From the NCBI GenBank assembly GCA_905178155.1, contig CAJINV010000013.1, positions 1,388,392-1,452,391 on the forward strand: 64,000 bases of DNA, given 5' to 3'. Position 1 is the stretch's first letter; every line of letters begins with the position of its first letter. Source of the DNA: Amoebophrya sp. A120 (taxonomy: Eukaryota > Protista > Dinoflagellata). The translations under genes were made by a program, and so were the position numbers. Of this stretch, positions 3,001 through 56,283 are shown one piece after another. A model generated the notes under the pieces. It searched no databases and was not told the origin of the DNA. It worked only from the letters and a program-made list of their open reading frames with translations.

Positions 3001-6000
3001 CATCCGGCGGTGATTCGGTTGCTGGAAAAAAGGGCGATCGAGGCGGAAAAATTGAGGCAGCAGAAGCTGGAGGAGTTAGCGCTTGCCGAAATCCGGATCG
3101 CGCAGATGGAAGCGGAAGAAAAGGAGCGGGCCCGGCAGCGGCAAATGCAGCTGGACGCCATTCAGGAGGAGGAGGAGACGACGCACACGAAAGAGGAGGT
3201 GAGCAGCCTGACGATGACGATGACGCAGCGGGAAGAGGAGGAGGAAGAGGACACCGCGACGTCGCTAACTTTGAAACGGGACCAGTCGAAAATGAACACA
3301 ACGCTGTCCACGTTGGTCAGCTATCAACTGCAAAAATGTCTGGGTCTGGAAGATTGCAACTTGTCATGCTGTTTTTGGACTCGAAAAAAGTTTGTATTGC
3401 ATGACCAGCAAGAGGGGTACAGTTTGTGCTACACGGATAGGGCATTTCTCATGCGAAGGTGCATCAGGAAGCCCTCTAAAAGTCTGCGATGCTAGGTCAT
3501 GCATTACAGGCATCATGGGTCATGAGAAATATGCATGACAAGTCTTGCATTCTTCCAGGCCCAGACATTTTTGCATTTGATATCAGCTCCGGCGGCAGTC
3601 TGGACGGAGTGAAAAATACCGCCGGCGGAGGTCCTGGTGCAAACGTTCCAGCTGCTGCCGCGCCGATCGCGGGGACTAATGGCGTGACCCCACCAGCACC
3701 AGCGGTTTTTATCAAGGAGGGGCAGCACGAAGCCGCCGCGGCTGCCGCGGCGAAGAAGAAGGCGCCGAAGATCCCGCTGGACGAGAAACAGCAGGCGATG
3801 CACGAGCTGAAGAAGTCCTTAACTTTGAACAGCTTGGTGGACCGGGTGAAGAAGGAGCGAAAAGAGACGAAAAAGCGCATCACCGGCGACGTCACCCTGC
3901 CGGCGTTCACGGTCGTTGTGTTCGGGGTGTTCAGCAACGGGGAGGAACGGGAACTGCACCGTTACCCGCTCGTGACGAGTTACAACGCTTTCGGCCTCTG
4001 CCCGGTCGACATGCTGGTGGGGAACAGTACGCTGCTGGGTCCGAACGGCGCCAGCTCGAACAAAATCAAGTACGCCTTGCGGTTGCCGACCACCCGCCCG
4101 CCACCCTCGGAGGTCGAGATGGATCTGGTCGCGACACTGGCGGAAATCCGCGCGAAAAGAAGTCCGGAGTCACCCGCGAACCGGCTGTTTGCAGATCAGC
4201 TGAATCGGTGTCGGCCGGTGGTCGGTGTGAAAGGCATTGCGCCGCTGCAGTCGGGTATGAAAAACGTGACGCAGGGCAGGTCGGTCGGTGCAAACTACGG
4301 GTTCACACCACTCGCCGAGTCCTTCGTGGTTCACGCGCCGGGGTTGAAGGGCACGGACGCGAAGGCGCACAAGGCGAAGATTGAAGCTGCCCGGCAGAAG
4401 ATGCTGGAGGCGAACATAAGCCAGTCGGATCACGTGAAGTCGACGACGAAGTTCAAAAAAGATCCGAGACGGGACGCTATGGCTCTTCTAGAAGATTTAC
4501 GCATTGCAAATATCGATCTCGTCTCTGGCGGTTCTGCCTGGAACAGTAGGTGCTGCTCTTTGTCCTGATGCAGCTTTTGCCTGCTCGCCTGAAAGTTCAA
4601 GTTGTGGAATGCATGGCGTGGTATCTTCACAGGTAGTCTTATGTTGAAAGCCTCTCAAGATCGGCCTATTCCGCATGCTGTCTGCGCGCGGCTACACAAG
4701 CACAGTTTTTGTTGTTCACGCGACCGCACAGATTTTTGTGTTACTGCCGGAGACAGAGCAGCAGCATCAAAAGTTTAATGCCTCTCTATTCATGCAACAG
4801 ACCACCGAGACGCATATTTGCAGTGCATACGATATGAAGAAGCAACGAGGCGGCGTGAAGTCGGAGGAGAAGGAGAAGAGACGGCGAAAAAGGGCAAAGC
4901 ACATCATCACCAGTCCCGGCGGAACTGCGGTTGCCGCCGGTGGAGATCATGGAGAGGGCAATACTAATTCGCCAGATAACAAATCCCCAGGCTCGCCCGG
5001 GACCACCGGCTCCAGCTTCTACACTTCCGACGAAGACAGCCAGAGCCGGGGCGGCCAATCCGGGGCCGGACACTCTACCGATGAGGACAAAGAAGAGCAG
5101 GAGGACGAGGAGGACTACCAAACGCAACTGTTTTCCGACAACATGTTGGAAAGGAAGGTGGAGCAAGCGCTCGGCAAAGTGGACAAGGAACTGCACCCTT
5201 TCGTCCTCCCCCGCTGGACCTACGACTTCAACCGCGACAACCCGTTCGCCCGGCAGAACTCGACGCTGTTGGCGGAGAGAACGTACGCGCGGAAGAACCA
5301 GATGGGCGAGGGCATGGTAGAGGATTTGCTGAACGAATCGCCGATTGACTTACTGTATCTACGGTTCCGCGTGTACGAGCCATCGAGTCAGCTGCGCACG
5401 TACGAGAAAAAAGTGAAGAAAGCCACGGACCGACGGCGCGCGCGGCGGCAGCGGGAGCTGGACGAGTGGCCGCTGTTCGTGGAAAAGATGCCGTACGACT
5501 TGCAGCAGCGCGCTGTAGACAACAAGTCCCAGTTCGTGCACGCCCGTGGTGGTTTCAAGCGGTTGGATGGGTTGTTCGCGAAGGAGGAGGTGAACGCGCT
5601 GGCCGCGGAGCGAAAGCGATTGCAGGAAGAAGCGGACGCCCGGGATTGGAAGGCGCAGTTGCGGATGAACCAGGCGAAGGCGAAGCAGAACGCAAGCAGC
5701 GGGAAATTTGCTGCGAAATGGATCAAAAAAACCGAGCAAGCAGGGGGGTTGGAAGCGCGGCGGAAAAAGAAGAAACTGGAGGAGGTACGAGTGGGGAGAA
5801 AAATTTGGGATTTGTTCCGATCAGTTGCACTTTGATAGCACACTTGCAGTACTTCGGCGTCCTTGTAGAGGAAGCTTATCGAGTGCCGAAGAAGTAGCAG
5901 TAGCTTGTGCTACATCATGTTTTGTTTGCATAGTACCAACAGAACCTGATAAAGTTAAAGAAGATAGCATGTGGGCTTTTCACTTCAGATAGTGAATGAA

Positions 6001-9000
6001 CTGCGTGACCGTGAGAAAAAATCGCAAATCGCAAAGTTTCTTTTCCATACCCCGAAGAAGAGGAGGAGGATGATGAGGACGAGGAGGTCGAGGTTGAAGA
6101 GGCAAAGCCGCCGACGCCCGACGATTCCGATATGGACGCCGCCATTGCCGCCGGCGATTTCCAAGCTGCCGGGAAGCAATCGAGGGAAGTGCGGAAGATG
6201 CTGTTGAAAGCGGAAAACGAGCGACGAAAAGCGGCGGGTCTGAAAGCGAAGAAGTCCCCCGAGCAGGAACGGCTGGAGGCGAAGCTGGCGAGGAGACAGG
6301 CGCGGGAGGAGAAGGAAGACGGGGAACGGAATCGGGAGAAGGAAATTTTAGAGCAATCCGCGAAATTGAACAAGCAGCTGACCACCGAGCGGGACAAGTT
6401 AGGGGACTTGTCCAGTCCAACGTTGACCATGGACGCGCAAATCGCCCTGGACGCCGCGGATTTCTCCTCCAGTGCTTCTTCAGGCGACAATCACGCGCGG
6501 ACGCAGGAGGACGGGCTGTTCACACCGGTGGAAGGCCAGCACTGCACCAGTTTCGTGAAGAAGAGAGGTGCATCTTCTACTGCGTTATCGAGTTCATCAT
6601 CGAGTTGTTCGTCGTCAGCCACTGCAGGAACAACAACCGGGAAGAAAGTTGCGAAAAGCGAGGAAAAAGCGCGGCGTGTTCCAAAACCTTCTTCAGTCGC
6701 GCCCTTCACAGCGTTTCTCAGGAAAGGTCGGTTTGGCGACATGTTTGAAGCATTGTCGAAGAAAACGGGACTCTTTGGTGCTGGTTCTGCTTCCAGTTCA
6801 AGCAGTAGTAGCAACAAGAAGCAGGAAGAAGAACTTCCTGAAGGCAGAAGTACAACCACATCTTCAAAGCCTCCCGCGAAGAAAGGCGCCCGATGTACAT
6901 CGAGTAGCAAAAGTGCCAGCAGTAGTAGCAGCAGCAGCGGAATACAAGTCCACTATTCCGCGGAGGCAAAGAGACGATTCCCTGGTTTGCGGCTCGATAT
7001 CAGACCGAAGAAAAAGAACCCGTCAGAGATGAAATCCCCCGAACAAGAAGAAGAAGAGCCGGAAAAAATAAACCCCCCTGCTAGTGCTAGAGACTACAAG
7101 CAGGAAACGACTAACGTGTCCAACTTTTTGCAAGAAGTCCTGGGCGATTTGATGTCGGAATGTTCCTCCCGCGCACCGTTAGAGCAGAACGAGGAAGAGG
7201 AGATCATTTTGCTGAGCTCGGAAGTGGACAAACCAGAGATTTGGTCCCGGAAAACGGAGAACTTCAAGCCGGCGCATGTTGTCGAGGATCCAAGAGACGG
7301 GTCGAGGATGATGGGCTCTTCTTCATCTAAAAATGGGGGAAGTAGCCGAGAAACTACGAGTTCTTCTTCCTCTTCTAGGCCGACCTTCACTCTGCCAGAC
7401 TCCTTCTCGCAAACGATGGACGCAAAAATTTACGGCGAAAGAGAAGGCGTTCAGGTGTCTGATCGTGACGAAGACTGTGAACAGGCTACAAGCGGCTCTG
7501 ATGAGGAAATGCCAGGGAGCATTGACGAAAAATCCTCGAGTAGTAGTGGTAGTAGTGGCACTTACAGCAATAGAAGAGGGTCCTCGTCTTCATCCCGTCA
7601 AGGACCGCGCCTCGTCCTGGATACCTTTACAAATCCCGCCACGGGCGAGAAAGTTCAACTCCCGCGAATAGACGAAGACGAGGGTGGTGCAGTCGACGCA
7701 GTAGAAATGCGAGACGAGGAGGACAACTACGCCGTCAACGAGCAGTTCTTCGAACAAAAAGATGTCGAAAACGACATTTCTGACGACGACGCGGCACTAT
7801 CGCTTTTCTCCCCTAGTAGAAGTAGAAGAATACAATCCGCTACATCAACTACCCGCCAAGATGAGGGTCTGCACCAGCTTCCCGACGCAGTAGATTCGAG
7901 CACTCCCGGAGGAGGACACAACCAGGACCACACCGAGCAACAGGGGGACGAAGAGGAGGAAGAGGAGTCCGAGCTCGGCGCTTTCAAGGACAGCAAAACG
8001 GCTGCGGAGCGGAAATTGAACGCTAAGTACCCGCAGCAGCCGAAGGACCCCCCGCCCTTTGTGAAGGATCCGGACCTGCCCATGGGGGGGCGGGAGGATA
8101 AGCGGTTGATCAACGCGGGCCGCACGGTGATGATGGACGAGTACGAGCGGGACGAGGATGTGTACCACGACCCGTTCCCTGCCGGTTCGATGGTTCGCGT
8201 CCCTCACGACCCCATGCACCAGCCGGACCGGCACTTGCCGGATGCCATGGTGAAGCAGAGGCAGCTGCTGATGCCGCAAATCGTGGAGGACGTGAAGGAG
8301 CGGGAACGGCGGGACTTGCTGGATTGGCAAAGGAAGCGGTACGCGTACCAAACGAAGACGGGGACAAAAGTAGATTTAATGATCGACCCGAATTTCCGCA
8401 CGACGGGGTTTGCCGCCGAAGATTGGAAGAAGAAGTCCGCGCGGATCTACGGGCCGCCGGAGGGAGATCACGATAAGGACGGGGACAAATGGTTTCGCGA
8501 CCAAATTGTGCAGGAGGACGAGGAGAAATCGCAGCAAATCAACTCCGTCTGGCAGGCGTATCACCCGGATGCGTCGTCCGACGAGGATGCAGAGGTGATG
8601 GACGAATTTCGGTTTGGTTCCGTCGGCCAGTTACTGGCCGAGGGGGTTTACTTTTTGAACTGCGCATCCTTGCACAAACCGGAGACCATCCAGGTCGACC
8701 TGTACCCCTCGCAGGCGATTCTTGACAAGCTGACCGAAGAAGCGACGGAAGCGCTGGGCGGGGTCGCGATCGACCACCCGGGGGGTGTGATGGGCTCGGA
8801 AGGTGGATCTTCGGGTAGCAGAAATCACAGCACGAACTCCCACGGGATCCCCCTCCCGAAGAAAAAGCGCATCCAGATGGCGAAATCGCGGTCGGTCGCT
8901 TTCGGCGGGCAGAAGCCGGTGTCGCGAATCACGCTGAAGGAACGGATCACAAAGGTTTTGAAATTCCCGATCGACTATGGGCGGGAGGGTCGGGAGCGCG

Positions 9001-12000
9001 ACGCGGGTCTGGCGAAAGCGCGGGTGCGGAAGGAGATGGCGGCGGTGGAACAAGTGTTCGGCGCTACACTGCCCGGGGAGTCCGCGCTGCGGGCGTTTAA
9101 GGAGAAGATGGACAAGAAACAGAAATCCTTCGAGGGCCGGGGCGGCACGGAAGCGAAGAAGGAGTTTTTTCCCGTTCGGTGGGCCATGGCCACGATGAAG
9201 AGCACCCGTATGATCCTGTTTTTCCAGTTGGAAGTCACGGGGAAGCGATACGTGCTGGACGACGACATCCGCCGGTACGTCCGGTCCCGGGATTTCAAGA
9301 AGAAGGTGGAGCAGACGAACCGGCTCCGCCGCATGAAGAAATTGAAGGAGTCCGGGCCCACCGCGCCGAAACAGGAGGGCGCGGACGAGAAGCCAGAGGA
9401 GGAGGAGAAGGGGAATCTGGACAAGCAGGCCGGCGAGGAGGAGGAGATGGAGCCGGAAGAGGAGTACAAGCCGGTCACGGAGATCAACCACATTTACGGG
9501 ATGATTGTGAAGGCGGGGAACGTGCAGACCGACGCCCGCGGGTTGATGGACCCCGCGGACGTGCACGAGTGGTACGAATCGCAGAAGAAAAACATTCTGG
9601 AAGTGACGAACAAGGAGAAGGCCAAACCGGTCCCGGTGAGCAAAATCAACGCCGAGATTCACGAAAAGATGCATCGACGGAGAAAGCTGTGGATAGGCCT
9701 TGGGGACAACCTGTTCCGCAAGCACAAGTCGTTTTTCCGCCGGAACCGCAAGTCGACGACCGTGTCGGCCACCGGCGTGGAGCAAGTGAGGGAGTACCCG
9801 GCGCCGCCACCCGTCACGAGAAAATTGCAACAAGCGCATCTGTACGTCGTCGCGACGGTGCTGGATGAGCAGAACCGGCCGTGGAAGAAATCGGTAATAA
9901 CCAGGATAAACCAAAGCTGCCCGGCGAATGCGCTGGGGCAGATGCCGATTTTCAACTCCGATTTTCTCTTCTCCTTCGGGGGCGAGGAAAGGGGCGACTT
10001 CGGGCTTCCGGAAAAGTTGGAATTCACGCTGTACCAGCGCGCGGACCTGCGGCTGAACCCGGAAGAGCTGGAGGCGGAACATCAGCGCAAGATGGAAGCG
10101 GGGGAGTTCGACCGGTCGTCGTTTTTACTTGACGGGGCGGGGGACTCGACGGAGGTAGGAGACGGCTCGTTTTTAGCCGGCGGCCCGTCGCAAGACACGG
10201 CGGATAACACGAACGGCGGCGACAGCCAGGATCTGCTTCTTCAAAAGTCGCAGCAACTCACGGAGGGTGCGCACAGCTCGCCCAGGAGTTTGCAGAGAAA
10301 GCGACCGGCCGCGGACAGTCGCTCGGACGCAGGGAGCAGTGGAACGGGGAGGAGTAGTGAGAGAAGCAGCCCGAGCAAGAGACAGAGAATTGCAGCCGGC
10401 GGTCCTGCGGTTGTTGATCAGAGCGTCACCTTGACAACCACTTCCACCCAGCAGACGAAGCGAGAGACGTCGAAAGCGATTGAATTCACCGGATCGATGT
10501 CCAAATCATCCTCCTCCAACAAGTTTTTGACCAACCGACAGCAGCGGGAGCAGGACGAGCGCCGCCGCACCGAGGGATCCGGCGCGGGCGTCTTGGGCAG
10601 GCGGCAAACGAACCACCGAGCGAAGAATCTGCAGCACTTGGCGGACCACAATGTTTTTGGGAAAACCAGGAGGAGCAGAAGGCCGCGGGAAATGTCGGAA
10701 AAATTCTGGAACAGCAAGTACGGGAGTAAGCTAGTCGCGCACGTAAACACGCTGTCGAAATCGGTCGCGTTTTCCTCGAACACCGGCGCAAACAATAACA
10801 AGCAAGACGCGCAGTTCTTCAGCACCTTGCTTCCCGGGGGACCCGGGCTGAATGACCAATCGAACAGTAATTTTCTGAACGATAACTCCACGGTTTTGAG
10901 CTCGATGTTCCGTTCGAAGGACCGGGTGAAGCCTTACGGGTTGGGGGTTCAGGAGCTGAACCAGGAACAAAAGGAGCCGTCGATTATCACGCTGGATCGG
11001 GTGGACGAGAACCACAGCTTCGAAGATTTTCCTTCAAAAATTTTCTCGGAAGCAGCGGCGTCCGAGCCGGTGCCGGTAATGCAACCGGGCGACATCGGCG
11101 GCGTTGGTATGTTCATTCGGGAGCAGCAAGGCGGGAGTTCCAGCAGCACCGCAAGTGGTCGCGGGGAAAGAAGAAGCGGGAGCGGCGGGAGTAATAGCAT
11201 CAGACCGGTGGAGGACGACGTCAATAAGAAGCAGTCGTGGTATTTTCCGGCCGGAAAATCGCCTTCGCCACCCAAAAGCTCCGCGAAGAAGAAGAAAAGT
11301 AAAAAAGGGACAAAAAAACAAAAAGGAACCAAATCCGGCTCGGACAGCAGCCCTGGGAAATTGAATCAAGACGGAGGAGGTGGGACAAGAAACACCACTA
11401 GTAACAACAAAACTGGTAAAAGTAGTAGCAGTCCCCAAAAGCACGGCTATGACGACGAAGACACGCCCTCGAAGCAGGGCACGCAGACGTCGTTCGAGCG
11501 GTCGCTCCGGAGTTGGCACAAACGCGTGCAGAAGTCGCAGCAGTTGGACAAGTACCGAGTAGATGCGGACGAGATGGCGGACGACGAACTGGAGCAGATG
11601 TCCGCGATGCTGAAGGCCGACCGGGAGGACAGGGAACGAGAACAACACTCCAACTCCCTGGTCGCCCCGGATTCGACCGGTTCCACGTGGCGCATTTCCA
11701 CCGCGGGCGGCGGAGTGCACACCAACACGCGGTCGAGCGTGATCGGCACGCCGGGCGTCCCGCCGGAGTTGAGTGAAGAGTCCAGCAGCAATGCCGACAT
11801 GTACAGCCGGGGGGATGAATTGTCGCGGCCGGCAAGCTCAAGGAACGGAGATAGGGAAGTAGACCAACACGATGGGGGCTACGGAAGTAGAACAAGAAAT
11901 GACCGAAATTATTTCCAAGAAGTCGCCGCGTCAGAAACCGTGTCCTTCATTTCCAGCAGCCACGCGCAGAACGCGAACACGAGGGAATCTACCCCGGCAC

Positions 12001-15000
12001 CGTACTTGGCGCGGATCGGGGGGCAGAATCCTGGTGCTCAAAGTAGCAGCAAAAATCATGTGCAAGAGCATAGTCTTCTTTCTTCCGACATCAAGGCGAC
12101 GTACGATCAGCACACTTTGAACAGCAGGATGGAACAGATGACGTTTGACGAGGACACGCTGCAGCCAGGATCGCAATCCTTTATCGTCAACAACCCCGAG
12201 CAAATCGAAGACAACAAATCCTTGGAACTCGCCTGGCAGATCCGACAGGAGAAGGCGGCTTTAGCAGAAAGGGAAAAAGCGGGGTTCTACAGCTCGTCGG
12301 GCACGGAGGACTTCGAGCGGCCTAAATCCGGTGCAGGTGCGAACAAAATAAAGAAAGACAATAAACCGAAAGAGTATGGCGGGTTCTGGTTGAGCAACGT
12401 GCTGAAAGCGCCGAAACTGTTTTTCCGACGGAAAAAATCGGCGAAAGATCCCCTCGTCGCGATGTCTTCCAAGCAGCAGATGGACACGCGTGCGGTGCAA
12501 CGGGCGAATAACGCGGTTTTCGATGGCAAGATCAACGAACTGCGCGAAACGGGCGGGCTGCACACCTCGGTGTTAGTCAAGGAGCACGAGAGAATGTACG
12601 GCGATGTGGGAACTGACAGCAGGCCGGGGAGTTCGGCACAGGGGCAACAGCAAGAACAGCAACAAGTGAATAGCCGTCCGAGCACTACGAGTCCCACAAG
12701 AGGACAGAATCAAACGAACCTTAACCGAGACCGGTTTCACGCGAACGCGTTCTCCAACGCAGCCCTGCCGCCGCCGTTACCATCCCGACAAAACCGCGGA
12801 AATAAGACCGGCGTCAACGCGATTCTGCAGTCCCCCAGCAAGTTCGAGAGGAACCCCTTCGATTTGAAGCGGAAGTCCTTGCGGAAGAAGCGGCAGGACG
12901 GGGGCATCGGCCTGCAACTCGAGGGGGAGCACAACGCCTTTGACAGCGATAGTAACGGGGTCTACTTTGGTGACAACGAGGTGGAAATAAACGACGACGC
13001 GCGGTCGTCTTCCAGCTCTTCCGCGACAGGAAGGCAGTCGATCATGAAACGCACGTCAAACAACGACAGTTTTCCAAACAGCCGCACCGGCAGCAAGCAG
13101 AGCAGCAAGCGGGTCAGGTTCGAGGGCACCGCTTCTGAGGACGAATACCCCATGTCGGATGACGTTGCTTCAGAGCTTTCATCTTCTAACGCGGGGAAAA
13201 ATCCAAATAACGGCGCATCCTCTGCATCCTGTTTTCGTCCGTCGCGGAATAAGTATGAGAAAAACAGTAAAAGAACCAATCGGTACAACGCAAGGACCAC
13301 CGCGGACCGCAATCGATTATGAGATCGTCTGAGCGATTCAAAGTCAAGCGATTCAAAAATTTTTTTTCACATTCCAGGCATTTCCTGAGTCTTGAAAAAA
13401 ACAGCGCCGCTGCTGTGCTGTGCTGCATTTTGCATGTTTTTTTGCCCTCGTCGAAACGTCGCCCAGAAGAGTATCAAACGAAACAGCTAGGCCGATCTCG
13501 ACTTGAGCTCCTTACTTTGGCATATGTGAACGCAATAAAAATAAGGGCAAGGCGAGCGCCTGCATTCATGAACCCGAAGCATCTGCAGAAGCAAGGGCCA
13601 ACAGAGTAGGCGATCCAACAGATGCCTCCCAGGCCCACGCCTTCCACTACTTGGCCCCAAAACGTGGCCGCAACCGCTGTCGGAAATAGCGGCTTCACGT
13701 GAGCGGCGGTTGAGAGGCGACGGGCTATGCACAAAGCAGGGCCGTCCCCAACCGGAGCTAGTCAGAGTGGCGCCAACGCGCGGCCCATTATTCTGCCACC
13801 GCCTAGGTGGCACTGTCTCCTGCGCGGTTTTTCTCGCATACATACACAGAAAAAGGGTGCCTGTGATCGGTGGGGCAGCGTTTGCCGGTCCCCCCACCAG
13901 TGGAAGACCCTCGTCTCTGGCTGGCGGCCTTTTTGTTCGTGGTCCTTTTCTTCTGGCCGCCAAAGCTTATTGGGCAACAGCGCGGGGCTCCGCCTGTATT
14001 TCTTCAGCTTTGGCGCCGTGCATCAGCCGCGTGCCGCCGCGTATCCGCCAAAAACCTGCACAAAAAGACCTGATCGCGGCACTTTTTGAATAGAATGTAA
14101 TGCGGAAAGTGCAAGTTCCACGGTTTTGCAATTTGCCGATTCAAATGAGGTCCTTTTGAATCGCCGAAACCCTCCAAAAAGGACCTCTATCGAGATCCAG
14201 CATACCGTCGTGGTTCCGGCTCTCGGGGGAGGCCAAAAAGGAGGTCCCGGATTGACCCCCTTCAGGAGCCGAAATCGGCCAAGCGCGACGGTATGCTGAA
14301 GAACAATGGAAAATCCCGAATCGCGATGCTATGGCGCCCTCTTTCATAATAGTGACCTTCGCACCTTCGGCACCATGCCCGCCACGCCCATTCCGAGCGC
14401 CGCTACAGGGCTTGCAAAGCCCCGCCAGCAGCTCTGGACCTGCCTGCGACCCCCGGGAAGCCTCTCTTTGCGAGTGGCTCCGCCGGCGCCCTTTCTCGTG
14501 CCAGACGGGGCCCACAACAACGCCCAGCCGCCCTCGCGACTCCCCCCAAAACCGCCCCTGTCGCGAAGCTCATACCCGCGCCCCGGCGACGTCAGTCCAC
14601 CAAGTTGCCCACGACATTGGCCCGCTGGCGGACTTGCCAAGGGGCCAGGCCCCCCAGTGCCATAGCAGCCGTGGGGCGCCTGCGCCCCAAACCCTCGGCG
14701 CCTTGGCCCGCCCCTCTTTGCAGCTACACGGAGGAAACAGCGCACCTGTGCGCCGCGTTTGTTGCTTTTTTTGCTAGCAAAGTAGCCCGCGCGGTCTCCG
14801 TGGACCTGGTCGAGGCTGCCGCAGGTTTACAACCTTTACGCGCGCAGGCCCAATGTAGATAGCTCAAGTTGACGTCGGCCTACATATTAACTTCCATAAG
14901 CCGGTGCCGACATCTCCGCCACTTACCTGAAACTGCTCCGCGCGACGCTGAATCCGGGGGCGTTTTGGGGGCAGTTGATGGGATGCGTTTTAGTTGAAAA

Positions 15001-17177
15001 AAAAATTTTGAATCCGCTAACTTTGAATCGCTGAGTCCATCTCATATCGTTACAACGCAAGGACCACCGCGGACCGCAATCTAGACTACTTCCACAACCG
15101 TTCCGTAGTCCGGCATCCGAAGCCAAATGCGATGCAGAAGTCGGGTACGGCTGGGAGAAAACCTACTGTCCGGAAGTTTGCAGAAGACCACACCAGTAGA
15201 GATACGCAGCTGGAGCTGGAAGCCGGAAGGGCACTGTCCCCGAGGAAGACCAAGAGCTCCACGGAGGGGAGGCACATGTCGCCGGAAAAGATCGGCATTT
15301 CCGGGCTCTCCGCAAAATCCGCTGGCGGGGCCAGTAGTCGGGGAAGCAGTCCGAAGGGGAAGCAGGCACAAGCAAAGCCAAAAGATGCAGCGGCGGAGGC
15401 CAAGAAGGAAGCAAAGAGGAAGGGCGGTGCGGCGGCCGTGAAGGGGTTGGGGAGTCAAGACGATTTGAAGAAATTACTCGGCGAGGATACCGATTCGGAG
15501 GAGGAGGAAGAGGAAGAGTCCGACGAGGGCGGGATGGACGCCCGGCAGCGGAGGAAATTAATTCGCCAGTTGGAAAAGCAGGAGAAGGAGAAGAAATATC
15601 GCAAGATCGAGGGCGACGAAGAGTCCGAATCCGACCACAGTGTGATTTTCGAGCCGGAGGACATTCTCTTGGCCACCGGGCAGCTGCAGTTGAACGCGAT
15701 CAAGGCAGCTGGGTCGTACTGCGAAGTAATGCTCCAGATCGACAAGCGGCGGAAGAAGGCGTTGCTGGAATTTCTCTCGATGCGGAACCCGGACAAGGCG
15801 GACCAAGATTACTACCCGTCCATCGTGCCAACACTGACGGTGATCGTGTTTGTTCAGCCTGCGTTGTTCTTCCCCAGGTTCGCCGAACTAGAGGAGTTTG
15901 AACTCCAGAACGCCGGGGTCGAATCCGACGACGAGGGGGGCGAGGGGAAGGACAAAGACAAGAAGGACGGGGAGGGCAAGGAGGCGTCGAAGGAGGAAAG
16001 CAAGGAGAAAGACAACGAGGGCTCGCCCGGGAAGAAAGCCGTCACGGAAGCGCCGCCGCGGAACACCATCAGTCGGAAGGAATTATTTCAGATCGAGAAC
16101 CCGGACCGACCGCTGGACATGGACAGCGACGACGAAACGATCCCGAAACTGATCACGCTGCCCGACCCGGGGCAAATCTCTGTGCCGATCCACCCGCACC
16201 CGGAATCCGTGGACCGGACGATCGCCATGATCAAGAACCGAACCCTCCGGGACACGGACGTCGCGAACCGGTTCTCGACCCACAACGACGAGTGGCGACA
16301 ACTGCCCGACAACGAAAGAATCGGCTGGGTGCGCCAGGGCTTCATCGAGCGGACGCCCAACCCGCGCAGCGTGATCCACCAGCCGTCCTCCATGTGCTAC
16401 GCGGACCCGCTGAACGAGCCGAAGACGCTGAAGGAGTTCGTGCAGCTCTGCGAGTACGAAGCGGACTACAAGCGGAACAGCAAGCGGTGCTTGAAGAATT
16501 TAGCGCAGACCGGGGAACTGGAGTTGGCGGATGAGCTGCACGAGATCCGGGACGAGGAGTACCTGGAACGGCTGCACAACGCGCGCGAGGAGTACGTCCA
16601 GGCTCTGTTGGAGAAGGATCGGGAGGCGCGGGAGAAAGCGGCGGAAGAGGAGCGGAAGAAACTGATGGCGAAGATGATGATGGGCACCGCGACCATGACG
16701 GGCTTTGACAAAGATAAGAAAGCCGGCGAGATGAAGAAGCACGACGACTCGCAAATTACATCTTCACAAACCACGAGCCAAGAGCAGTCGAAGGAGAAGA
16801 AAGAGGAGTCTCTGGGCTCGCTGGAAGGCTCTTCCCACGTGTACCAGGACTCGCAAGAGTCGAAGGTCACCGTCGACGCGATCCAGGGCGCGCCGGACAT
16901 CACGATCTACGGGGAAAAACTGTCCGACCGGGAGCGGGTTATGAGAAAGGCGAAGCTCCCGTGGGTGGAGAAGAAAGTGGTCAAGGTGGTAGAGGAAGAA
17001 AACATCTTCCCGACCTTCGGCAAAGTGTTCGGCACCGGGCGGTATCAGCGGTCGGAAGACATCGAAATGCTGGAAACGCGAAATCGGTGGGTGCAGTTGG
17101 TGAACCCGCATTCGACGCAGGTAGCGGCGTTGAGAAACATGAAGAAAGGGGGCGGGTCGCCGGCAAGGGGACGGTGA
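1..17177 (+). CDS. Giant multi-exon protein (~4,300 aa in window, 5'-partial) with C2-domain-like segments and long S/E/K-rich low-complexity tracts
   Basis: ORFs 20-367, 2029-3495, 3489-4568, 4675-5835, 6132-13322 and 15132-17177 chain in frame. Joins require removing elements 330-2009, 3322-3582 and 13315-15050 (each plus one direct-repeat copy) and GT-AG introns 4550-4823 and 5785-5988. One unexplained 1-nt frame slip remains at the A6 run 6016-6021. C2-like motifs: NPNPYVV...RTEPLLETKAPCWDLEF...IEFHVYDY and HLYVVATV...PIFNSDFLF...LEFTLYQ. Confidence 0.7.
330..2009. mobile_element. Introner-like TIR element, family A copy 1 (252 bp core plus nested insertion)
   Basis: TIRs TATCAAATGTAAAAATGTCTGGGTCTGGAA / TTCCAGACCCAGACACTTTTGCACAGGATA. 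5-bp TSD GTCCG at 325-329 and 2010-2014. Removal gives in-frame DDGAASAAESDLAEF. Confidence 0.93.
480..1898 (+). mobile_element. Retroposon-like insertion (probably a 5'-truncated non-LTR element) nested in family A copy 1
   Basis: 9-bp direct repeat ATGACAGGC at 471-479 and 1899-1907. 3' (TGA)n tail preceded by a stem-loop TGAGGACGA...TCGTCTCA. Subtracting it leaves a 252-bp element collinear with copy 62893-63144. Confidence 0.8.
3322..3582. mobile_element. Introner-like TIR element, family A copy 2 (261 bp)
   Basis: TATCAACTGCAAAAATGTCTGGGTCTGGAA ... TTCCAGGCCCAGACATTTTTGCATTTGATA. TSD TCAGC at 3317-3321 and 3583-3587. Removal gives in-frame LSTLVS-SGGSLDGV. Confidence 0.95.
13315..15050. 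mobile_element. 1.74 kb TIR element (family B) flanked by a 31-bp direct repeat of exon sequence; in-frame intron
   Basis: ~55-bp imperfect TIRs (GATTATGAGATCGTCTGAGCGATTCAAAGTCAAGCGATTCAAAAATTTTTTTTCA / TGAAAAAAAAATTTTGAATCCGCTAACTTTGAATCGCTGAGTCCATCTCATATC). Perfect direct repeat TACAACGCAAGGACCACCGCGGACCGCAATC at 13284-13314 and 15051-15081, offset 1767 nt = 589 codons. No recognisable internal protein. Confidence 0.88.
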
Positions 17178-18099
17178 GCTGGTGGAGTTGTAAGGTTCTT
17201 CAGTGTTGTACTCCTCGCGATTAATTTGCTGCCGTGCAGAACATTCTGCTGCATCATCATGATCGGTAACGTCTTATTGAATCCCAATGTTTATCTTCAC
17301 AATGTTAATTCACAGACAGCTTTTGCACTTTGCAAAGCTTTTGCTTAGAACTCCAAACTTATCTGAATTCGTTAAACTGAATGTTGCGCTTAGTAAAATT
17401 AAGCTTTGACTGTAGGTCGTACTTTCGCAAAATTGAACCTTAATCCCAAGAAAACTAAAATGTCAAATAAACCGAAGCAGTGGCTCGAGCTCGCAGCGAG
17501 CTGTGTTTCTCAGAACTAAACAGACCTTTTGTTTCAATGCAGATTTCCAAAGTGCTGTGGCAGGTTCGCCTGCACGGTACACTCTAGCGAATTCAAAGAC
17601 AGTCTTTACGTAGCAGGAAATAAAGCAGCGATGGCGATGAGAGTCGGAAACTTCGGAATAACGACCAACCATGCAAATGCCGTTGTGAATAGCAAAACTC
17701 TGACATGGAAAACTCTGTTATGATTCAATGTCGCTTGTTTCTACTTCTAGATCTCTGTGCAAAATGTTTCTCAATAGCTACTTAGCGAGCTCCTGCTGCC
17801 TTTTGCAGCTATGAATGAACTTCTACAACTTGACGTTGCTTGTACAATGTTGCTACGATGAACGGACAAAGTTCAATCTGAGCTTTTTTCCTGCTCTACT
17901 CGCTCGCTTGTATCATTTTCTTCGACCATGAGCATCACACTCGGACTCGTCTCCTTCCGCTTCCGATCTGGAGGAACTGAGATTGAATGATGCAACAATT
18001 ATGTCTGACGAGACTGTTCATCTTCAAAACTTACCAGTCTAAAACTGCCCTTACGTGTTTGCGCAAGAACGAGAACGATTGAATCCGTTGCCCGGGCAG

Positions 18100-21000
18100 G
18101 AGAGAGAGCACGCAGGAGACGAAGAGACGAAATCACCAAGAAGACGAGTGGTTGCGATGAGATGGAGAATGGGACGAGGGCCCTTGATAACCTGAGGTGA
18201 GGCTGTTTCAACAGCGCATGTTACTATATGTGAAATACAACTGCGCACGTAGGTAGCCTGTCAAGAGTGCTGCAGGCACTGTGTAGCACTCTGTCCATGA
18301 CCTGAAAAAAAAAAGGCCGAGGCTGCTACCGGCGATTTCTCGTGTACACATCTCGGAGCACCGCCGCGGGACTTCCTTGCCTCCGGGTTGTATTTGACGC
18401 GCGAGGCCTGTTTGTATTTGCAGTCTTTCAACACCGGCAAGGCTGGCAGAGCTGCATAGCGGACTAGGCTGATGCCTCCGCTGCGCTTAGCTTGCAAGGT
18501 CTCCGCGCTCCCGTAATTTGCCGCGTTCCGCCTTTCTGAAAAGAGACCAGGAGGATAATCAATCGGGTTGCGAAGTACGGAGTAGACCCGGACTCGCTGC
18601 AGGGGCGGAGGCGATGGCCGCGCGCGGCGCCGGTACTCGGGGGGCTCGGCGATGTCCAGGCCGCGGCCGTGGATTGAGAGAGAGAAGAACACCGGGCGGG
18701 CGCAGGTCCCGCCACTTCAGCGCGTCGCAGAATCGGCGCCGCGCCGCTCTTCGGTTTTAATTGCCGCGGCCGCGGGCGGCCGAGCAGTTTGATTCATCCC
18801 CACGAGCGCCAAAGCGCGAAATTTGGCTGAAGCCGGCGGCCCACTAGGGGCATTGCATTTCTTGCGCCCGCCGCGGTCGCGGGCCCAAAAAGACTGGCGC
18901 GCCGGCGGCGGCAGTGACTGTCCGCGCCACGGCTGCGGGGGCAGAGAGTTTGGCCCGCCCGGGTGAGCTACTTCACAGATTGTTTTGGCGGCGCACCTCT
19001 TCGAGTAGGCATCTCGCTCTTGTTCCTGCTTTGGATTATGTCTGGCCGTGATCGACGACAGTTTGGTGCTATCAACTTCACAGTGTGTTCGCGTCGTGCT
19101 TGCCGAGCCCGAGAGCGTGTGCGTCCTCCATTTTCTGTGTGAGGGCTGAGAGACGAACGGCTTTTGTAGTAGGCAGTGACAAAAATAAATTGAGGAGATA
19201 AATAATGAGGGTCGTGGAATGTCCTGCTCGAAAAGCACCTTGTGAGCCCATCAAAATCTCCTTGGCTTGAGTGTCGAGCCAATGTAAGGACTGTAAGCTT
19301 TTGGTTTATGCCCGCCGTCTTTATTGTTCTGCAGTGCGATGTCTGCCCGGGCGCAGGCATTTAGAAAAGGAGAACGAGAGAAGGACGTTACGTAGAGAGC
19401 TTGGCTTGAAGAGTGCGAGAGAGAGTAAGCAACGAGTGAGAGCTAGAGGACCAATGAATCTGGAAAGCTTCATGGTGCCGCAACAGGCCATCTTCTGTTC
19501 TGAGCTTCCATGTTGCACTGAGATGTTTTTGAAAATTTTTCACCCGCTAGTCGACGCCACAGCTGCTCCAAACAAGATGGCAGAGCGTGCCCGCCGAGAC
19601 GAGGCGGTGCGTGTGGTGTCCGAGAAGACTGCGCCATGGGTCGTCTCATACGCCCCGCGGCGAAATCCGCTCGGCTGCGGCGACGTTATGGTCTGGCGGC
19701 GGCAGGCCCCCGCAACTATTGCGAGCACTGCGTCAAGTAGGTGCGGGAAAAGCAGGGGACCGCTGCACCTGAGACCGTCCGCAAAGGCTGCCCAAGCCCG
19801 TGGAAAGAAAGAAAGGAAAGGGCCCCGCAACAGAGGGAAAGGCGCCAGCAGGAGAGGCTCGCGACACGGAGAGGCCAACGAACTGAAGCGCTTTGCCGGC
19901 CGCCCGCAGGCGCCTTCCTTCGTTCTCGGCACGCCCTGCCGCTGTTTGTGGGCGCTAGAGCTGGTAGCCATTGCCCGCAAACCGATAGGGCGACCGGGGC
20001 GCGGCGCCGGTGGATGGGGTGCGCGCCTAGCTTCCGCACGCAGCGCCGGCGCGCCTGGAGCGTCCGCTGCTTTCTTTCGTCGCGCGCCGAATCGCGGGCG
20101 CCGCCGCAGTCCGCGGGACTTGCCCGGGGCGGGCGGCTTCCATCCTAGCTACCGCATTGATTGGGCACGAAGCCCGCAGCCCGGCGCAGCATTTTTTTTG
20201 CCCGCCCTTGTCATGGGCCCAGAGAATTCGCTGCGCCGCCGGCAGTAGTGATTTTTTGCCGTGGCCGCGCCGACACAATGAATGTAGATGGGGCAGCCGC
20301 CCAACGAGAAACTTTTCGGACGCCATCCAGGATCGGATGAACGGCGGGGGTTCATATATCCGTCATTTTCCCTGTTCCGCCCATTTTTGTAGTGACTGAT
20401 AGTTTTTCGCGAGGAAGTGATAGGTCACTACAGAGTGAAAGATATCACGGAGGACATAGTACTGAGAGAGAGGGACGATTGATTCCTTGGCAGGAGTAGA
20501 GAGAGCATGGAGATGAGATCACAAAGACGAGAGACTGCGATGAGATAGAGAATCAATGGGACGAGGACGTTTGAGATCCTCATGAGTGCGCCTAATATCA
20601 TCTTGCCACTTGAACTCTTGTGTAGCTGTAGCAACACTGCGATGTTTCTGCGTGGTTGTGAAGTTCAAGTTCTGCTAACCAACACCTTCCATCTTGCGAG
20701 TCCGCAATAGAGCTTGTGCCCTGCGCTTTCATGTAACAGTGGGATGCTAAGTGATTTGTTTGCCATTGGTTGACACTACAGGCGCTTGCGTTTTTTTCTG
20801 CCAACACCTCGAACCATGGCGGAGCATGCGCGCCGGTTGCCCGTGCGACTGCGCGGGGCGTGTGATGCGTCCTGCGGAGAAATCTTCGCTGCGGAGACGC
20901 TATGACATGGCGGCGGTGGACGTGGGCTCCATGGGCTCCATCACCGTGCACGACGAATATGTGGCGGCCGAAGGCGCGCGGCGCGCGGGCGAATTTGCAA

Positions 21001-22889: not shown

Positions 22890-23422
22890 GCGGGAAGCGG
22901 AAAACACAGGTGTGATCTACTACAGGCGGCAGAAACTTTTCTGAGGCTCACGGAAGTATGGCTGGCAGGGCTGGCGGCAGCTAAGAGTCTTTGCCGCAAT
23001 TGCAAAATTAAAGTCAAAGGAGAAAATGTATGTTGTTACCGTTAGCCTTATCTTTCTTCCGCCGCTGTAAAAGATTTTCTCTGGTGACTACATTGTTATT
23101 GTCGCTGAGAATCTGATGAATTTGAAAAGTTGAGAACATAGAAACTGTTGCACGAGAATTCAGAAGACTCGCAGTGCGCCGGCGAGCAGAACACCCTGAG
23201 AATAAAAAAAGCAACAAGAAATTATAGCACAAAAATGCACAATCGCCATGAATCTTTCCTGGGCAAAGGTCAATTACACTGTTCCAAATTGATACTCGGT
23301 TGCTCCCTCGCGTGCCTTTTTTCAGGAAGGCAGCTTTTCTCCAAGTCGCCTCATCTGCTTGTTTCTGTAAGAGTGAGTAGACTTCACCGTCCGCCCAGAA
23401 TTGGCTCCTTAGCAAGCAAAAC

Positions 23423-24706
23423 ATGATGATGGTTAGAGCGCCCAGACACTTCGTCTTCTTGCACGTTGCTCTGTGCTTCTCTCTCCCTACTGTGCACGCG
23501 GAGCAAGAGCTGCATGCGAAGTGCACGGTGACGAACCAACACGGCCATTTCTGGACCAGCTTCCGGCACGCTCCCCTGATGTCCGCCCTGCCTTCCGCCT
23601 GGGTGCCGATGCCACCGGATATTCCGGAGAAAAACATCCAACCGCCCAACCACGCGCTGCCGGTGGAGCGCGTCCCGGTCGGGTTTTCGGACTCGATTCA
23701 CAGCAACGAAATCGCGGATTTGTATGACGTTCTGTTTGAGTACAACCGCCTGTGGGCGAAGCAGCGGTGGATGGGAACGATCACCATGCAGAACCCCATG
23801 GACGCGTGGGTGATTCAGGAACTCCTTTTCGACTGCAAACCCGATGTGATCATTGAAACCGGGACCATGAACGGCGGCGGGGCATTGTTCTACGCAAGTC
23901 TGATGCGAATGTACAGCACTTTTCAACAACATCTCGTCGAGGATGAAGAATCTGATTTAACGACACCGCAAATGAACACTAGAACGAATAAGAAACCATT
24001 CGTACCGCAAGTCATCACCATCGGCAACCTTCCACTCGACGACCAAAGTTACGGGTGGCACTGGGATACCAGCTACTGCAGCTTGGAAACAAACGCATGC
24101 CGCAACGCGACCAGCAACCCACTGTGGAAACAGCAGGTGACTTTCATTCGAGGTGACGCGGTGTCGGAGGAGGTATTCGAAAAGGTGAAAGACAAACTCT
24201 CAGAAATCGCCTGTATGAAAAAGGCGTCGAGGGTGGAACGAGTTTCTCATGCAGGAAAGGAAGAGGATGAAAGTGAAAGAGAATCGAAAGGCAAAGCTAC
24301 AACTGCTCCCACACCCTCATCGTCAGAGGACTTGAAGATCATGGTCGTTTTGGATTCCACGCACCATTACGCGCACGTAAGGAAAGAACTCGCTTTGTAC
24401 AGTAGGTTTGTCACTCCAGATCAGTACTTATTGGTCCAAGACACACACTTAGATAAACTACGGAACCTCCGCAACCCAGAATCGAACTGGGAGGGCGCGT
24501 TTGCGGCGATTAGGGAATGGTTTGAATACTCTAGTTACGCGAAAGAGGAATTCAAAGTGGACCAGAGAAGGGAATACTTCATCTACACGCAACACAAAAA
24601 TGGGTATTTGAAAAGAATAAGATTGATTGCTGCTGCAGATGAGATGGAAAGAACCCAGTATCTGTACAAATACCCAGCGCTTCTTCGGGTGAGCATGTTC
24701 TACTAG
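23423..24706 (+). CDS. CmcI (cephalosporin hydroxylase / rhamnosyl O-methyltransferase) family protein with signal peptide
   Basis: Family motifs WMG..TMQNPMDAWVIQELLFDCKPDVIIETGTMNGGGALFYA and MVVLDSTHHYAHVRKELALYSRFVTPDQYLLVQDT. Hydrophobic N-terminus. Intronless. Confidence 0.88.
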   Translation: MMMVRAPRHFVFLHVALCFSLPTVHAEQELHAKCTVTNQHGHFWTSFRHAPLMSALPSAWVPMPPDIPEKNIQPPNHALPVERVPVGFSDSIHSNEIADLYDVLFEYNRLWAKQRWMGTITMQNPMDAWVIQELLFDCKPDVIIETGTMNGGGALFYASLMRMYSTFQQHLVEDEESDLTTPQMNTRTNKKPFVPQVITIGNLPLDDQSYGWHWDTSYCSLETNACRNATSNPLWKQQVTFIRGDAVSEEVFEKVKDKLSEIACMKKASRVERVSHAGKEEDESERESKGKATTAPTPSSSEDLKIMVVLDSTHHYAHVRKELALYSRFVTPDQYLLVQDTHLDKLRNLRNPESNWEGAFAAIREWFEYSSYAKEEFKVDQRREYFIYTQHKNGYLKRIRLIAAADEMERTQYLYKYPALLRVSMFY

Positions 24707-25950: not shown

Positions 25951-27454
25951 AAAAAATCTTACTCACCAGGAATATTTCGATTTTCACAACAACATCTTTT
26001 GATGACACTGTATCCAATGAACACAACGCCAGGTTTTGCTTTTCAACTGTGATGACGTGTATCTGTAGTTCAGCTGCATCAATTTATTTCAACGTGCACC
26101 GACTATCAAGCCAAAGCATTTTAGAAACATTCGCAATTCGCAAGCTTTTCGTGGTTGATTTTCGATCAATATGACACTGTATGGTGCAGCGTCTACTGGT
26201 GTCGCGATAAGATGAGTTACTAGTAAGACTGACAGCAATCTGCTGCAACGAAAAGGATGTAAAATTGTAACAAACTTCGTGCTCTAGCTTTGATTTATGG
26301 TCCTAGCCACTGTACAATTGGAATCGTGCAACCGTCCACGTCGGTGAGTACAGCTGCTTATGTTGTCTTTTAGAAGCCTAGGTTGCTTAGACATTGTTCA
26401 TGAGAGCAGATACTTGCTTTACATCAATAACAATTCCATGTGGAGTGCTTTCGGTCGTGCCTGTCCGCTAGATGCTCTTCTTCTGTACAAAGCCTCGGTC
26501 AGCTGGTGTATGCGGTATTATTTACATGCAAAAAGTAGAGTGTCAACGTGAACACATGATTTCTCTTGAGCAGTGATCGTACATGGTTAGCACCATTCTG
26601 CCACAAAAAAAAAGGTCTCGTGCACCTATCATCTGGTCGTAGTACCACAAAGAAACGAGAACGAAAGTCGTGAGTACAGTTTACTCGTCGGTAAATCGTG
26701 CAACAACCTCCTGTATTTCGTGCACTGGAAAATTCCAGGTGACGCCGTGCAAGAAAAAGTACAATTTGTATGCTACTTTTATTTATCGAAAGTTTCTTGA
26801 ATTAATTCCGCATCTGGATCAAAAACAAAAACAGCCTGCCTGGTAATCGCTGATTCGTGCCGCAAGCACGTGTCGCGATTGCTTTGCATTCAAGCACTTT
26901 ACAATATTTCCCCTTTACTTCTCATTTTCCCTCTTTTTGAAGTAAAATTTTCAACATTCTTTCCCCCACAACCTGTACACTATCTATGTGAAGAATTTAT
27001 CCTCCATGTTGAAAACTACATCAAATTCGATTTTGACTCCATTGTCTTTCGTACAAAAATGCACATGAAAACGCACAACTCGCAAAAACTTAACCACGAC
27101 AATGAATGCGCTGACGAGGCGGTCAGCACAAATTTTGCGGGTATTTTTGGATTGGCCTGGCCATAAACTGCAGCTGCCCTGCGCAAGAACTTCCAGCAGT
27201 GGGTCATTCTAAAAACGGCTTTTCGTCGTCCGAGGATGACTTTGCGAGGAGACACGACATCCCTCGGGGAAAGCACGGCGGGTGGCGTCGGCGAGAGCAC
27301 GAGCATGAAGATGATGGGCTGCGCAAGAAGATGGCAACAAGAGCAGCACGACAGGAACACTAGCAAGCCCCAAAATTGTATTTCCACATCAAGACCCATG
27401 TTTGCGCATTTCGCGACAGGGTCCTTTTCGGCACCGACGAAGACACTTTTCAAC

Positions 27455-42062: not shown

Positions 42063-42411
42063 AGGTTTTTGCGGTGAATTATCATGACAATTTCTATTTT
42101 CTTCACATCCACGACGACACAATTCGACCGACATATTTAGTGTTTTGTTCCATTCATGAATCACAAAAATAGAAACGAGTCAATACTTTTGATGACAAAT
42201 TGAGATCTTCTACATACGAACCTCTCACGACACACACATCATAATGAAGAAGGAACTCGTTCCAAGAGGGCGGCACCATTGAAGAAAACATAGAATGAGA
42301 GAAAAAAAGACGACATCGGAATTCAATTTTCTTTATTGGAATTAGAGAGATGAATTTTCTTTATTGGAATTAAGCACAATCAGACTTCGACAAGTAGACC
42401 TGACTACGAAA

Positions 42412-56074: not shown

Positions 56075-56283
56075 TATCCAAGAAAAAAACTGTGTTAGTG
56101 TAAGTCTTTTGGGAAAACAGCATCACAAGTTCGTCTGCCTTGACAGGAAAAACTTGTCATGCACAGATAGTAAGGGAAAACACATAGGAATGGAGCCGAT
56201 CATGCATGTCGAGCATGACAAGTATAACTGTTTTGCATTTTCTGCATCACAGATTTACACTTACACAGTTTTTTTCTTGGATA
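56075..56283. mobile_element. 209-bp TIR element (family D) with TAT...ATA ends and 5-bp TSD
   Basis: TATCCAAGAAAAAAACTGTGTTAGTGTAAGTCT / AGATTTACACTTACACAGTTTTTTTCTTGGATA. TSD GCAGG at 56070-56074 and 56284-56288. Carries the same GCATSACA / TGTCATGC internal motifs as family A. Confidence 0.9.

Follow-up and report, generated by a model that had tools for sequence, protein, structure and literature searches.

A 1729-bp element with terminal inverted repeats (TIRs), TAT...ATA termini and 5-bp flanks interrupts one gene in the window (the whole stretch of 64,000 nt that was analysed). Probably it leaves the transcript as a non-canonical intron of 1734 nt, and both copies of a 33-bp exon duplication, likely a separate event, stay in the mRNA. 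This account builds on direct observations: the ends and flanks of the element, its absence from an RNA-like run, the unity of the host gene and the single copy carried by orthologs. On the best reading, the element is a non-autonomous introner of the Amoebophrya A120 type, a kind already described in this marine parasite. An earlier, sequence-only reading had proposed an intron-forming TIR element inside one gene, which our results support. It had also proposed a second intron-creating mechanism distinct from that of family A; this is not supported: the focal element belongs to a different sequence family with the same geometry.

Ends, flanks and relatives of the element

The element and its borders are composed of the following features.

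13318..15046, no strand assigned: non-autonomous TIR element, TAT...ATA termini, 1729 bp (placed by its ends, flanks and other copies starting exactly at 13318)
13318..13369, + strand: left TIR, 52 nt, pairing with 14995-15046 in the predicted RNA fold
14995..15046, − strand: right TIR, 52 nt, 85% complementary to the left
13488..13520, + strand: subterminal inverted repeat, 33 nt, 79%, partner 14850-14882
13313..13317, + strand: left copy of the 5-bp target-site duplication (TSD), TCGAT
15047..15051, + strand: right copy of the 5-bp TSD, TCGTT (4/5 identical to TCGAT)

The imperfect TIRs, earlier put at about 55 bp, are confirmed at 52 nt and 85%. Together with the TAT..ATA termini they agree with the TNT..AYA signature of IS481EU elements. 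Two traits of A120 introners are also present: inverted repeats that start with TAT at both intron ends, and a direct repeat over the exon/intron borders (TCGAT/TCGTT; 3-5 nt in those introners). Pfam gave no match in 23 of the 24 internal stop-to-stop frames of at least 45 aa, and the element appears to be non-coding and free of an internal transposase, as expected of an A120 introner. Its two ends form a loose palindrome over ~200 nt; a nested element at 13488-14882 has no TSD, belongs to this end-to-end palindrome and was rejected. An outward extension of the TIR to CGAT/ATCG (predicted pairing with a bulge) was considered, but since the match of two other copies ends at TAT, this was not accepted as the element end.

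These two copies, one in X1 record 5 and one at locus L006, begin matching at TAT and carry neither the adjacent GAT nor the long repeat described below. The X1 copy is diverged and matches 13318-13571 from TAT exactly, with 77 unmatched letters to its left; the L006 copy is known from its left end, its right end lying outside 2.5 kb of sequence. The sequence-only reading had held that copies with short or no TSDs would mark the long duplication as a one-off. The two copies point that way, and the 5-bp flanks were measured in other families. The focal family is repeated in the genome, with diverged copies in X1 contigs, a depth 3-4 times that of the flanks and the relative in L006. Summed X1 depth, which gives no exact copy number, is ~80-110 for this family versus >100,000 for family A. 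A 26-letter TIR pattern had no match in metagenome contigs, and the TIR pattern scans returned none in viral contigs or prokaryote genomes. A looser 25-letter pattern hit six loci, of which L006 was kept and five were dropped as chance: in L001-L003 and L005 the similarity was limited to the pattern itself, and L004 is a bacterial Ser-Ser-Asp-Ser-Lys repeat.

Five-bp flanks also occur at ten other intact TAT...ATA elements, six in the window (family A among them) and four in L006. Seven TAT..ATA pairs in the window reach at least 17/20 complementary end bases. One of them joins the ends of two different copies; the remaining six, the focal pair included, have 5-bp flanks identical at 4-5 of 5 positions. 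Flanks are fully identical (5/5) at the element at 330-2009, with 15/20 complementary end bases, and at 4 of the 10 TAT..ATA pairs listed for L006, where the others are weak or crossed. Family A (3322-3582, 38703-38966, 54019-54288, 62893-63144 and 330-2009) shares with the focal element the TAT...ATA termini, the 5-bp TSD, a presence in the same host gene and probably the mode of excision (below). It differs in its TIR and internal sequence, which are unrelated beyond the termini, and in its far higher copy number.

Probable removal of the element from the host transcript

The element lies between two exons of a gene for an Amoebophrya protein of unknown function.

6054..13316, + strand: upstream exon of the host gene (X3 record 10, ortholog comparison)
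13317..15050, + strand: putative non-canonical intron, 1734 nt, TT..GT, made up of 1 nt + element + 4 nt (three RNA-shown introns, open frame, contig breaks)
15051..17177, + strand: last coding exon of the host gene (X3 record 13; the RNA-like contig runs on to 18179)

The 2396-aa and 681-aa ORFs form one gene, as had been suggested: the Amoebophrya AT5.2 ortholog P0001 aligns across both, and P0005, the A25 gene model, likewise continues past the homologous site, ending ~130 aa beyond it. The host protein has 4,294 aa inside the window and ~4,700 aa in all by comparison with P0005; Pfam found no match in either host ORF or in the two orthologs.

Of 11 listed runs, we compared four: DNA contigs (X1), two runs presumed to be RNA (X3 and X6, of which X3 skips introns) and raw RNA (X9). 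X9 has the same species label, shows depth in 3 of 30 bins, all in family A, and gives no evidence either way on the locus. Both exons are covered in X3 and X6 and the ortholog spans both, indicating that the element is removed from the host transcript if these runs are RNA as presumed. X3 depth is zero at 20/20 listed places inside the element. Mean X3 depth is ~6.5 in two bins inside it and X6 depth is 2.6 at 13407-13415, which may reflect short unspliced stubs.

The position of the cut is suggested by introns upstream in the same gene. X3 record 10 joins the blocks 2010-3316, 3583-4493, 4831-5784 and 6054-13313, and each of the three introns skipped is an element plus 5 nt; none fits a GT..AG placement. 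All three share a single possible placement, 1 nt before and 4 nt after the element (1+4), with the ends of two of these rule-setting introns (4498-4829 and 5786-6049) placed by eye on decayed TIRs. Applied to all five elements of the host gene, the 1+4 cut yields a single open frame of 4,295 codons, free of stops before the last codon. At the focal element, the TIRs would pair in the pre-mRNA, with cuts one nucleotide ahead of TAT and four beyond ATA, and the host protein would gain NRYNARTTADR.

Three in-frame removals exist here: 1734 nt, which keeps both copies of the long repeat, 1767 nt (GA..AG, 13295-15061) and 1779 nt (GT..AG, 13283-15061). The latter two had been put forward as splice sites supplied by the duplication itself; they are present and in frame, but as used sites the contigs contradict 1779 and favor 1734 over 1767. 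In X3 and X6, RNA-like contigs stop at 13313 and resume at 15052 with no other letters; the break coincides exactly with the repeated 31-mer, the pattern that retention of both copies would produce. In a k=31 simulation, the 1734-nt cut reproduced the 13313/15052 break, whereas 1767 or 1779 alone gave no break; 1779 mixed with unspliced RNA gave breaks at 13283/15061, and 1767 mixed with unspliced RNA gave the same pattern as 1734. High-depth contigs of both samples contain 13283-13313 and 15052-15061, in contradiction to the GT-AG cut. No contig bridging the 13317-15050 junction (a predicted 62-nt loop contig) is among those listed, and the sampled-word share of 0.77-0.78 fits all three cuts (0.79 expected).

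It is improbable that one copy of the repeat leaves with the element and restores a single-copy protein. Single-copy orthologs would agree with such a removal, as would the simulated mixture of 1767 and unspliced RNA. However, that mixture needs unspliced RNA on both sides, whereas X3 has zero depth at all 20 listed places in the element and its contig that ends at 13313 crosses three other introns unbroken; those introns follow the element + 5 nt rule.

Origin of the long direct repeat

A direct repeat of 36 nt with one mismatch is confirmed at 13279-13314 and 15046-15081 (offset 1767), with a perfect 31-nt core at 13284-13314 and 15051-15081. By chance, an exact 31-bp repeat inside 2 kb is expected ~3e-11 times per 64 kb. 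The repeat was thought to bound the TIRs directly. It does not: three bases, GAT (13315-13317), separate the left 31-bp copy from the left TIR, four bases, TCGT (15047-15050), separate the right TIR from the perfect 31-mer, and the direct flanks are TCGAT and TCGTT. Subtracting the putative 1734-nt intron from the 1767-nt offset leaves 33 nt, the length of an 11-codon duplication bounded by CAATC microhomology.

13277..13309, + strand: unit 1 of a 33-bp (11-codon) exonic tandem duplication, beginning at the CAATC microhomology
13310..13316, + strand: first 7 nt of unit 2, ahead of the intron
15051..15081, + strand: remainder of unit 2 (15051-15076) and closing CAATC (15077-15081)

Unit 2 differs from unit 1 once, at a synonymous position. 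Two Amoebophrya orthologs carry a single copy, with V or L, both hydrophobic, at the position of Leu in the right copy. The duplicated codons sit in a low-complexity, poorly conserved region of the protein.

Short tandem duplications and templated insertions mediated by microhomology are known at DNA breaks, and the focal repeat shares with them a short unit, a 5-bp microhomology border and a place next to a likely break site. The long repeat is likely a one-off repair or slippage duplication rather than the mark of a new transposon enzyme. A repair-linked origin, one of two that the sequence-only reading had offered, is a fair candidate; the other, the TSD of an unusual integrase, is at odds with TAT...ATA ends and 5-bp flanks that are the same as in family A. 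A DDE transposase supplied in trans would have made a 5-bp staggered cut in the target, as with family A, and the 33-bp unit would derive from slippage, or a switch of template, between two CAATC words that lie 33 bp from each other. Repair at the left end of the element, either at insertion or at a later nick, is the most likely occasion for this and takes a little over half of our confidence in the best reading; it would explain why the element is almost central in the repeat array. Alternatively, the duplication came first and the element landed inside it. That path needs a coincidence because near-perfect tandem duplications are rare in the window (one array in 64 kb), and one allele cannot order the events.

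Part of the evidence counts against a separate duplication. The 38 bases adjoining each TIR are 35/38 identical and have the look of a long TSD, and the same column of the three TCGNT words holds G, A and T, so that two hits at one column are needed. These bases could instead reflect a wide stagger, in which a single event left 38 bp between the cuts in the two strands, equal to 5 bp and roughly three helical turns, and three later substitutions beside the element came to mimic a 5-bp TSD. TAT...ATA introners would then be moved by an IS481EU/IS3EU-like transposase whose usual stagger is 5 bp and which can skip helical turns, the focal insertion being a 38-bp rung. There are precedents: TSDs of IS481EU fall at ~4, 15 and 25 bp, in steps of about one helical turn, and vary in this way even inside a single family; those of IS1202 measure 5-6, 15-17 and 24-29 bp (PMC10045372). 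IS481EU also shares with the focal element the TNT..AYA termini and TIRs of ~50 bp or less; in the available text of that paper it is known only from parabasalids and no 38-bp rung is reported. Such a stagger accounts for where the element sits with no need for coincidence. Of the three differences, two (13317 and 15050) are the terminal bases of the putative intron and free to drift, and after a 1+4 cut the mRNA would still gain 33 nt in frame; of the rungs 16, 27 and 38, only 38 would survive in coding sequence.

We nonetheless consider the wide stagger unlikely. It requires three substitutions, one of them non-synonymous, compared with two (one synonymous, one intronic) for the 33-bp duplication, and both left-end changes must match the letters of the 5-mer at the other end. 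The CAATC microhomology must be chance, with odds of ~2%: 189/9169 exon sites have an exact 5-bp match at the 33-bp offset. Of nine elements compared in the window, the focal one alone carries a long flank duplication; the 8 others lack it, as do the 4 intact L006 elements, all of other families, and the other Amoebophrya elements sampled show 5 bp only. No IS481-like transposase, or other transposase, was found in the focal element's own frames. In the 50 of 58 published A120 introner families covered here, TSD calls are 2-6 bp, plus one manual call of 8-9 bp, although the automatic method may miss long TSDs (PMC12130899 Dataset S2). Listings of openly accessible literature on long TSDs in introners or TIR elements contained no such report for Amoebophrya. 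A TSD of 38 bp would, to our knowledge, be the longest of any eukaryotic DNA transposon.

RNA-like depth is ~3x higher to the right of the element than to the left (X3, 156.7 vs 49.6; X6, 36.7 vs 13.7); in X6, the upstream pieces have a depth of 4-6, followed by 13.7 and, nearest the 3' end, 36.7. This step, the end of P0005 shortly past the homologous site and the lack of a spanning read or contig among those listed would suit an independent gene at 15132-17177, with the upstream ORF ending in the element, or an assembly artefact, but both are very unlikely given that P0001 spans both halves, P0005 reads through, the X6 gradient resembles 3' bias and the X1 DNA contigs (X1 possibly being the window's own source) break at the 31-mer, as two real copies predict.

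Relation to known introners and significance

The kind of element favored here, a TAT...ATA introner beside a separate duplication, is close to the A120 introner elements of Farhat et al. (2021), which start with TAT, carry direct repeats of 3-5 nt and have their inverted repeats 1-5 nt away from the splice sites (PMC7789003). Shared traits are a repeated, probably non-canonical intron, TAT inverted repeats, a 5-bp border repeat and no transposase. The focal intron is longer (1.73 kb vs 240 nt on average for non-canonical introns of A120), as is its TIR (52 nt vs motifs of 8-20 nt). It lacks the A-run 7 nt after TAT given for the A120 motif families and, unlike the introners described in the available text of that paper, sits in a 33-bp exon duplication. 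A120 introner family 38 of Gozashti et al. (2025) has a TIR of ~50 nt and is likewise listed with '5-bp TSD, TA/TA termini'; compared by description only, it is ~810 bp with integrase-like ORF remnants, whereas the focal element is 1729 bp with no Pfam match (PMC12130899).

As it stands, the element adds one more family to the ~2,000 introner families reported for Amoebophrya A120, together with a single 11-codon duplication, and it cautions that a long repeat around a TIR element is not necessarily its TSD. A 1+4 cut that is fixed with respect to the hairpin and tolerates five different end dinucleotide pairs (four seen) is relevant to how such introns are spliced where U1 was not found; geometry of this type was already hinted at in the available part of the 2021 supplement (PMC7789003). 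Were a 38-bp stagger true, the helical-turn TSD ladder of IS481EU would reach a new lineage and a new rung, and would point to the transposase behind Amoebophrya introners. Such a rung would write 11 new codons into the host protein, because splicing removes only the element + 5 nt. If instead repair at the end of the element produced the duplication, introners of this lineage also extend proteins, whole peptides at a time, and could contribute to the rapid protein evolution described in the genus.

Boundaries of the element and its host gene

The direct repeat described in the sequence-only reading is present at an offset of 1767 nt (36 nt with one mismatch; perfect core 31 nt), as are the inverted repeats (13318-13369 and 14995-15046; 52 nt, 85%), and both lie far above chance expectation. 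The 31-bp repeat does not directly bound the inverted repeats as proposed there: GAT intervenes between the left direct-repeat copy and the left inverted repeat, and TCGT between the right inverted repeat and the perfect 31-mer. The element thus delimited runs from TAT (13318) to ATA (15046), 1729 bp, with immediate flanks TCGAT (left) and TCGTT (right). Additional, diverged copies of its family exist. One, 90% alike (X1 record 5, from a run with DNA contigs), matches from TAT and not before, leaving 77 unmatched letters on its left; a 57-nt match in L006, a metagenome-collection locus, likewise begins at TAT. Internally, 23 of 24 frames lack Pfam matches. An 18-nt inverted repeat, its arms 65 nt apart, lies at 14198-14298.

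Strong homologs of the host gene were found only in Amoebophrya AT5.2 (P0001, 2391 aa) and A25 (P0005, 4661 aa). The P0001 alignment covers both ORFs, confirming the earlier suggestion that they form one gene. The repeated motif is single-copy in both orthologs, whose RTVSYFH and RTLSYFH correspond to RNLDYFH in the right copy. This protein comparison indicates that the duplication is the derived state and that the right copy holds the ancestral continuation.

Pfam hits elsewhere in the window
23381-24706, + strand, CmcI-type methyltransferase
27167-28507, + strand, pentameric ligand-gated ion-channel binding domain
48768-49811, - strand, SDE2
51443-54220, - strand, ABC transporter
59919-61067, - strand, EF-hand and ATP:guanido phosphotransferase

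Splicing of the focal intron and its neighbors

Contigs of four sequencing runs (11 listed) were compared with window 1-20000; two runs, X3 and X6, were taken as RNA by guess. X3 record 10 connects 2010-3316, 3583-4493, 4831-5784 and 6054-13313. Each skipped piece exceeds a TAY...ATA element by 5 nt, including where the target-site duplication (TSD) has decayed. With the ends of two decayed elements placed by eye, 1 nt on the left and 4 nt on the right is the sole placement common to all three introns. Applied to the host gene's five elements, this rule yields a single frame of 4,295 codons whose only stop is at the end. The splice sites of these introns seem to be measured from the hairpin rather than read from sequence.

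Host-gene introns under the 1+4 cut
329-2013, ends GT..CC
3321-3586, ends CT..AG
4497-4833, ends TT..AT
5785-6053, ends GT..CC
13317-15050, focal intron, inferred, 1734 nt, ends TT..GT

For 5786-6049 and 54019-54288, every mismatch between the TSD copies is assignable to the one within the intron.

At the focal element, X3 and X6 contigs stop at 13313 and resume at 15052, and no contig among those displayed bridges the junction. In a k=31 graph simulation this break arises from genomic DNA, from the 1734-nt form, which keeps both repeat copies, or from the 1767-nt form mixed with unspliced RNA. Alone, 1767 and 1779 both leave the contig unbroken, and mixing 1779 with unspliced RNA puts the break at other positions, contradicting the proposed GT-AG cut of 1779 nt. 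X3 depth is zero at 20 of 20 listed places within the element and three other introns are crossed in X3 without a break; the 1734-nt form, its cut inferred, is therefore the best fit, and the proposed 1767-nt GA-AG cut is disfavored. Two X3 bins within the element at mean depth near 6.5, low X6 depth at its left end, the missing bridge among the displayed contigs and the guessed RNA status of the runs count against 1734.

Origin of the 33-bp duplication

The lengths 1767 and 1734 differ by 33, and mRNA spliced in the 1734-nt form would carry two 33-nt units with one synonymous difference. The units are bounded by CAATC at 13277, 13310 and 15077; among 9169 exon sites, 189 have an exact 5-bp match at a 33-bp offset by chance. 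Short duplications bounded by microhomology are a signature of slippage or template switching. With a one-off duplication, the locus is explained by an ordinary insertion and two further substitutions. Had the array been older, the element would have landed 3 nt from its center, a coincidence because the window has few near-perfect tandem arrays, just one in all. If the template switched while the element's left end was under repair, the duplication would arise without this coincidence; this is our preferred path, while the one allele seen does not fix the order of events. In L006 (reverse complement, 490-623), a ~66-bp near-perfect tandem duplication falls within what looks like a coding frame, which shows that exons of this lineage do acquire short duplications.

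A single 38-bp stagger, making the long repeat a TSD, is very improbable. IS481EU offers a precedent, with TNT..AYA ends that fit TAT...ATA and, in a single family, TSDs of about 4, 15 and 25 bp (PMC10045372); 38 is about the next rung and, among 16, 27 and 38, alone keeps frame under the 1+4 cut. However, three substitutions would be required, one non-synonymous and two copying the opposite end's 5-mer, CAATC would be there by chance, and no transposase was found. The long rung is also absent from every other element sampled. Of the alternatives suggested earlier, repair is a reasonable candidate for the source of the long repeat, and a wide-stagger integrase fits poorly with the 5-bp flanks.

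Such flanks recur in the window, where a scan for TAT...ATA pairs (at least 14 of 20 complementary bases) listed 26. Seven reach 17/20: one cross-pairing and six, the focal element included, whose 5-bp flanks agree at four or all five positions. The pair at 330-2009 (15/20) has flanks identical at 5/5; the others are crossed, weak or possibly decayed. Longer flank duplication (35/38) occurs only at the focal element among nine window elements tested. In L006, a perfect 5-bp TSD flanks each of four intact TAT...ATA elements belonging to other families. For the 50 of 58 A120 families covered, PMC12130899 Dataset S2 gives called TSDs of 2-6 bp, with one of 8-9 bp assigned by hand, and annotates family 38 as '5-bp TSD, TA/TA termini'. 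No account of a long TSD in Amoebophrya was among the papers listed in literature searches.

Several other insertions were observed. A second long TAT...ATA element (330-2009, 1680 bp) in the same gene has family-A inverted repeats and a perfect 5-bp TSD, and the A25 ortholog aligns either side of it. A third family (56075-56283, 209 bp, TSD GCAGG) has a 77%-identical relative in L006, a 22-kb contig of an Amoebophrya-like genome that also carries family A (89% to 3322-3582) and the focal family's left end. Either that L006 element is longer than 2.5 kb or its right end is gone, and it could be an autonomous partner. Two 0.9-kb elements (29971-30883 and 42406-43318; 95% identical) with (AAT)n tails resemble a SINE or non-LTR retrotransposons truncated at the 5' end; their target duplications, 14 bp and 18 bp long, are the window's real long TSDs.

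Relation to known introners

A120 introners have direct repeats of 3-5 nt, and inverted repeats starting with TAT are a published mark of this strain (PMC7789003), which points to A120 or a close relative as the likely source of the window. The focal element works alike and shares the defining features tested, the exact junction excepted. It differs from family A in sequence and shares its geometry, and is therefore not the second intron-creating mechanism once proposed. Codon-adding introners are already published (PMC9860276). The focal element is best read as another family of A120-type introners.
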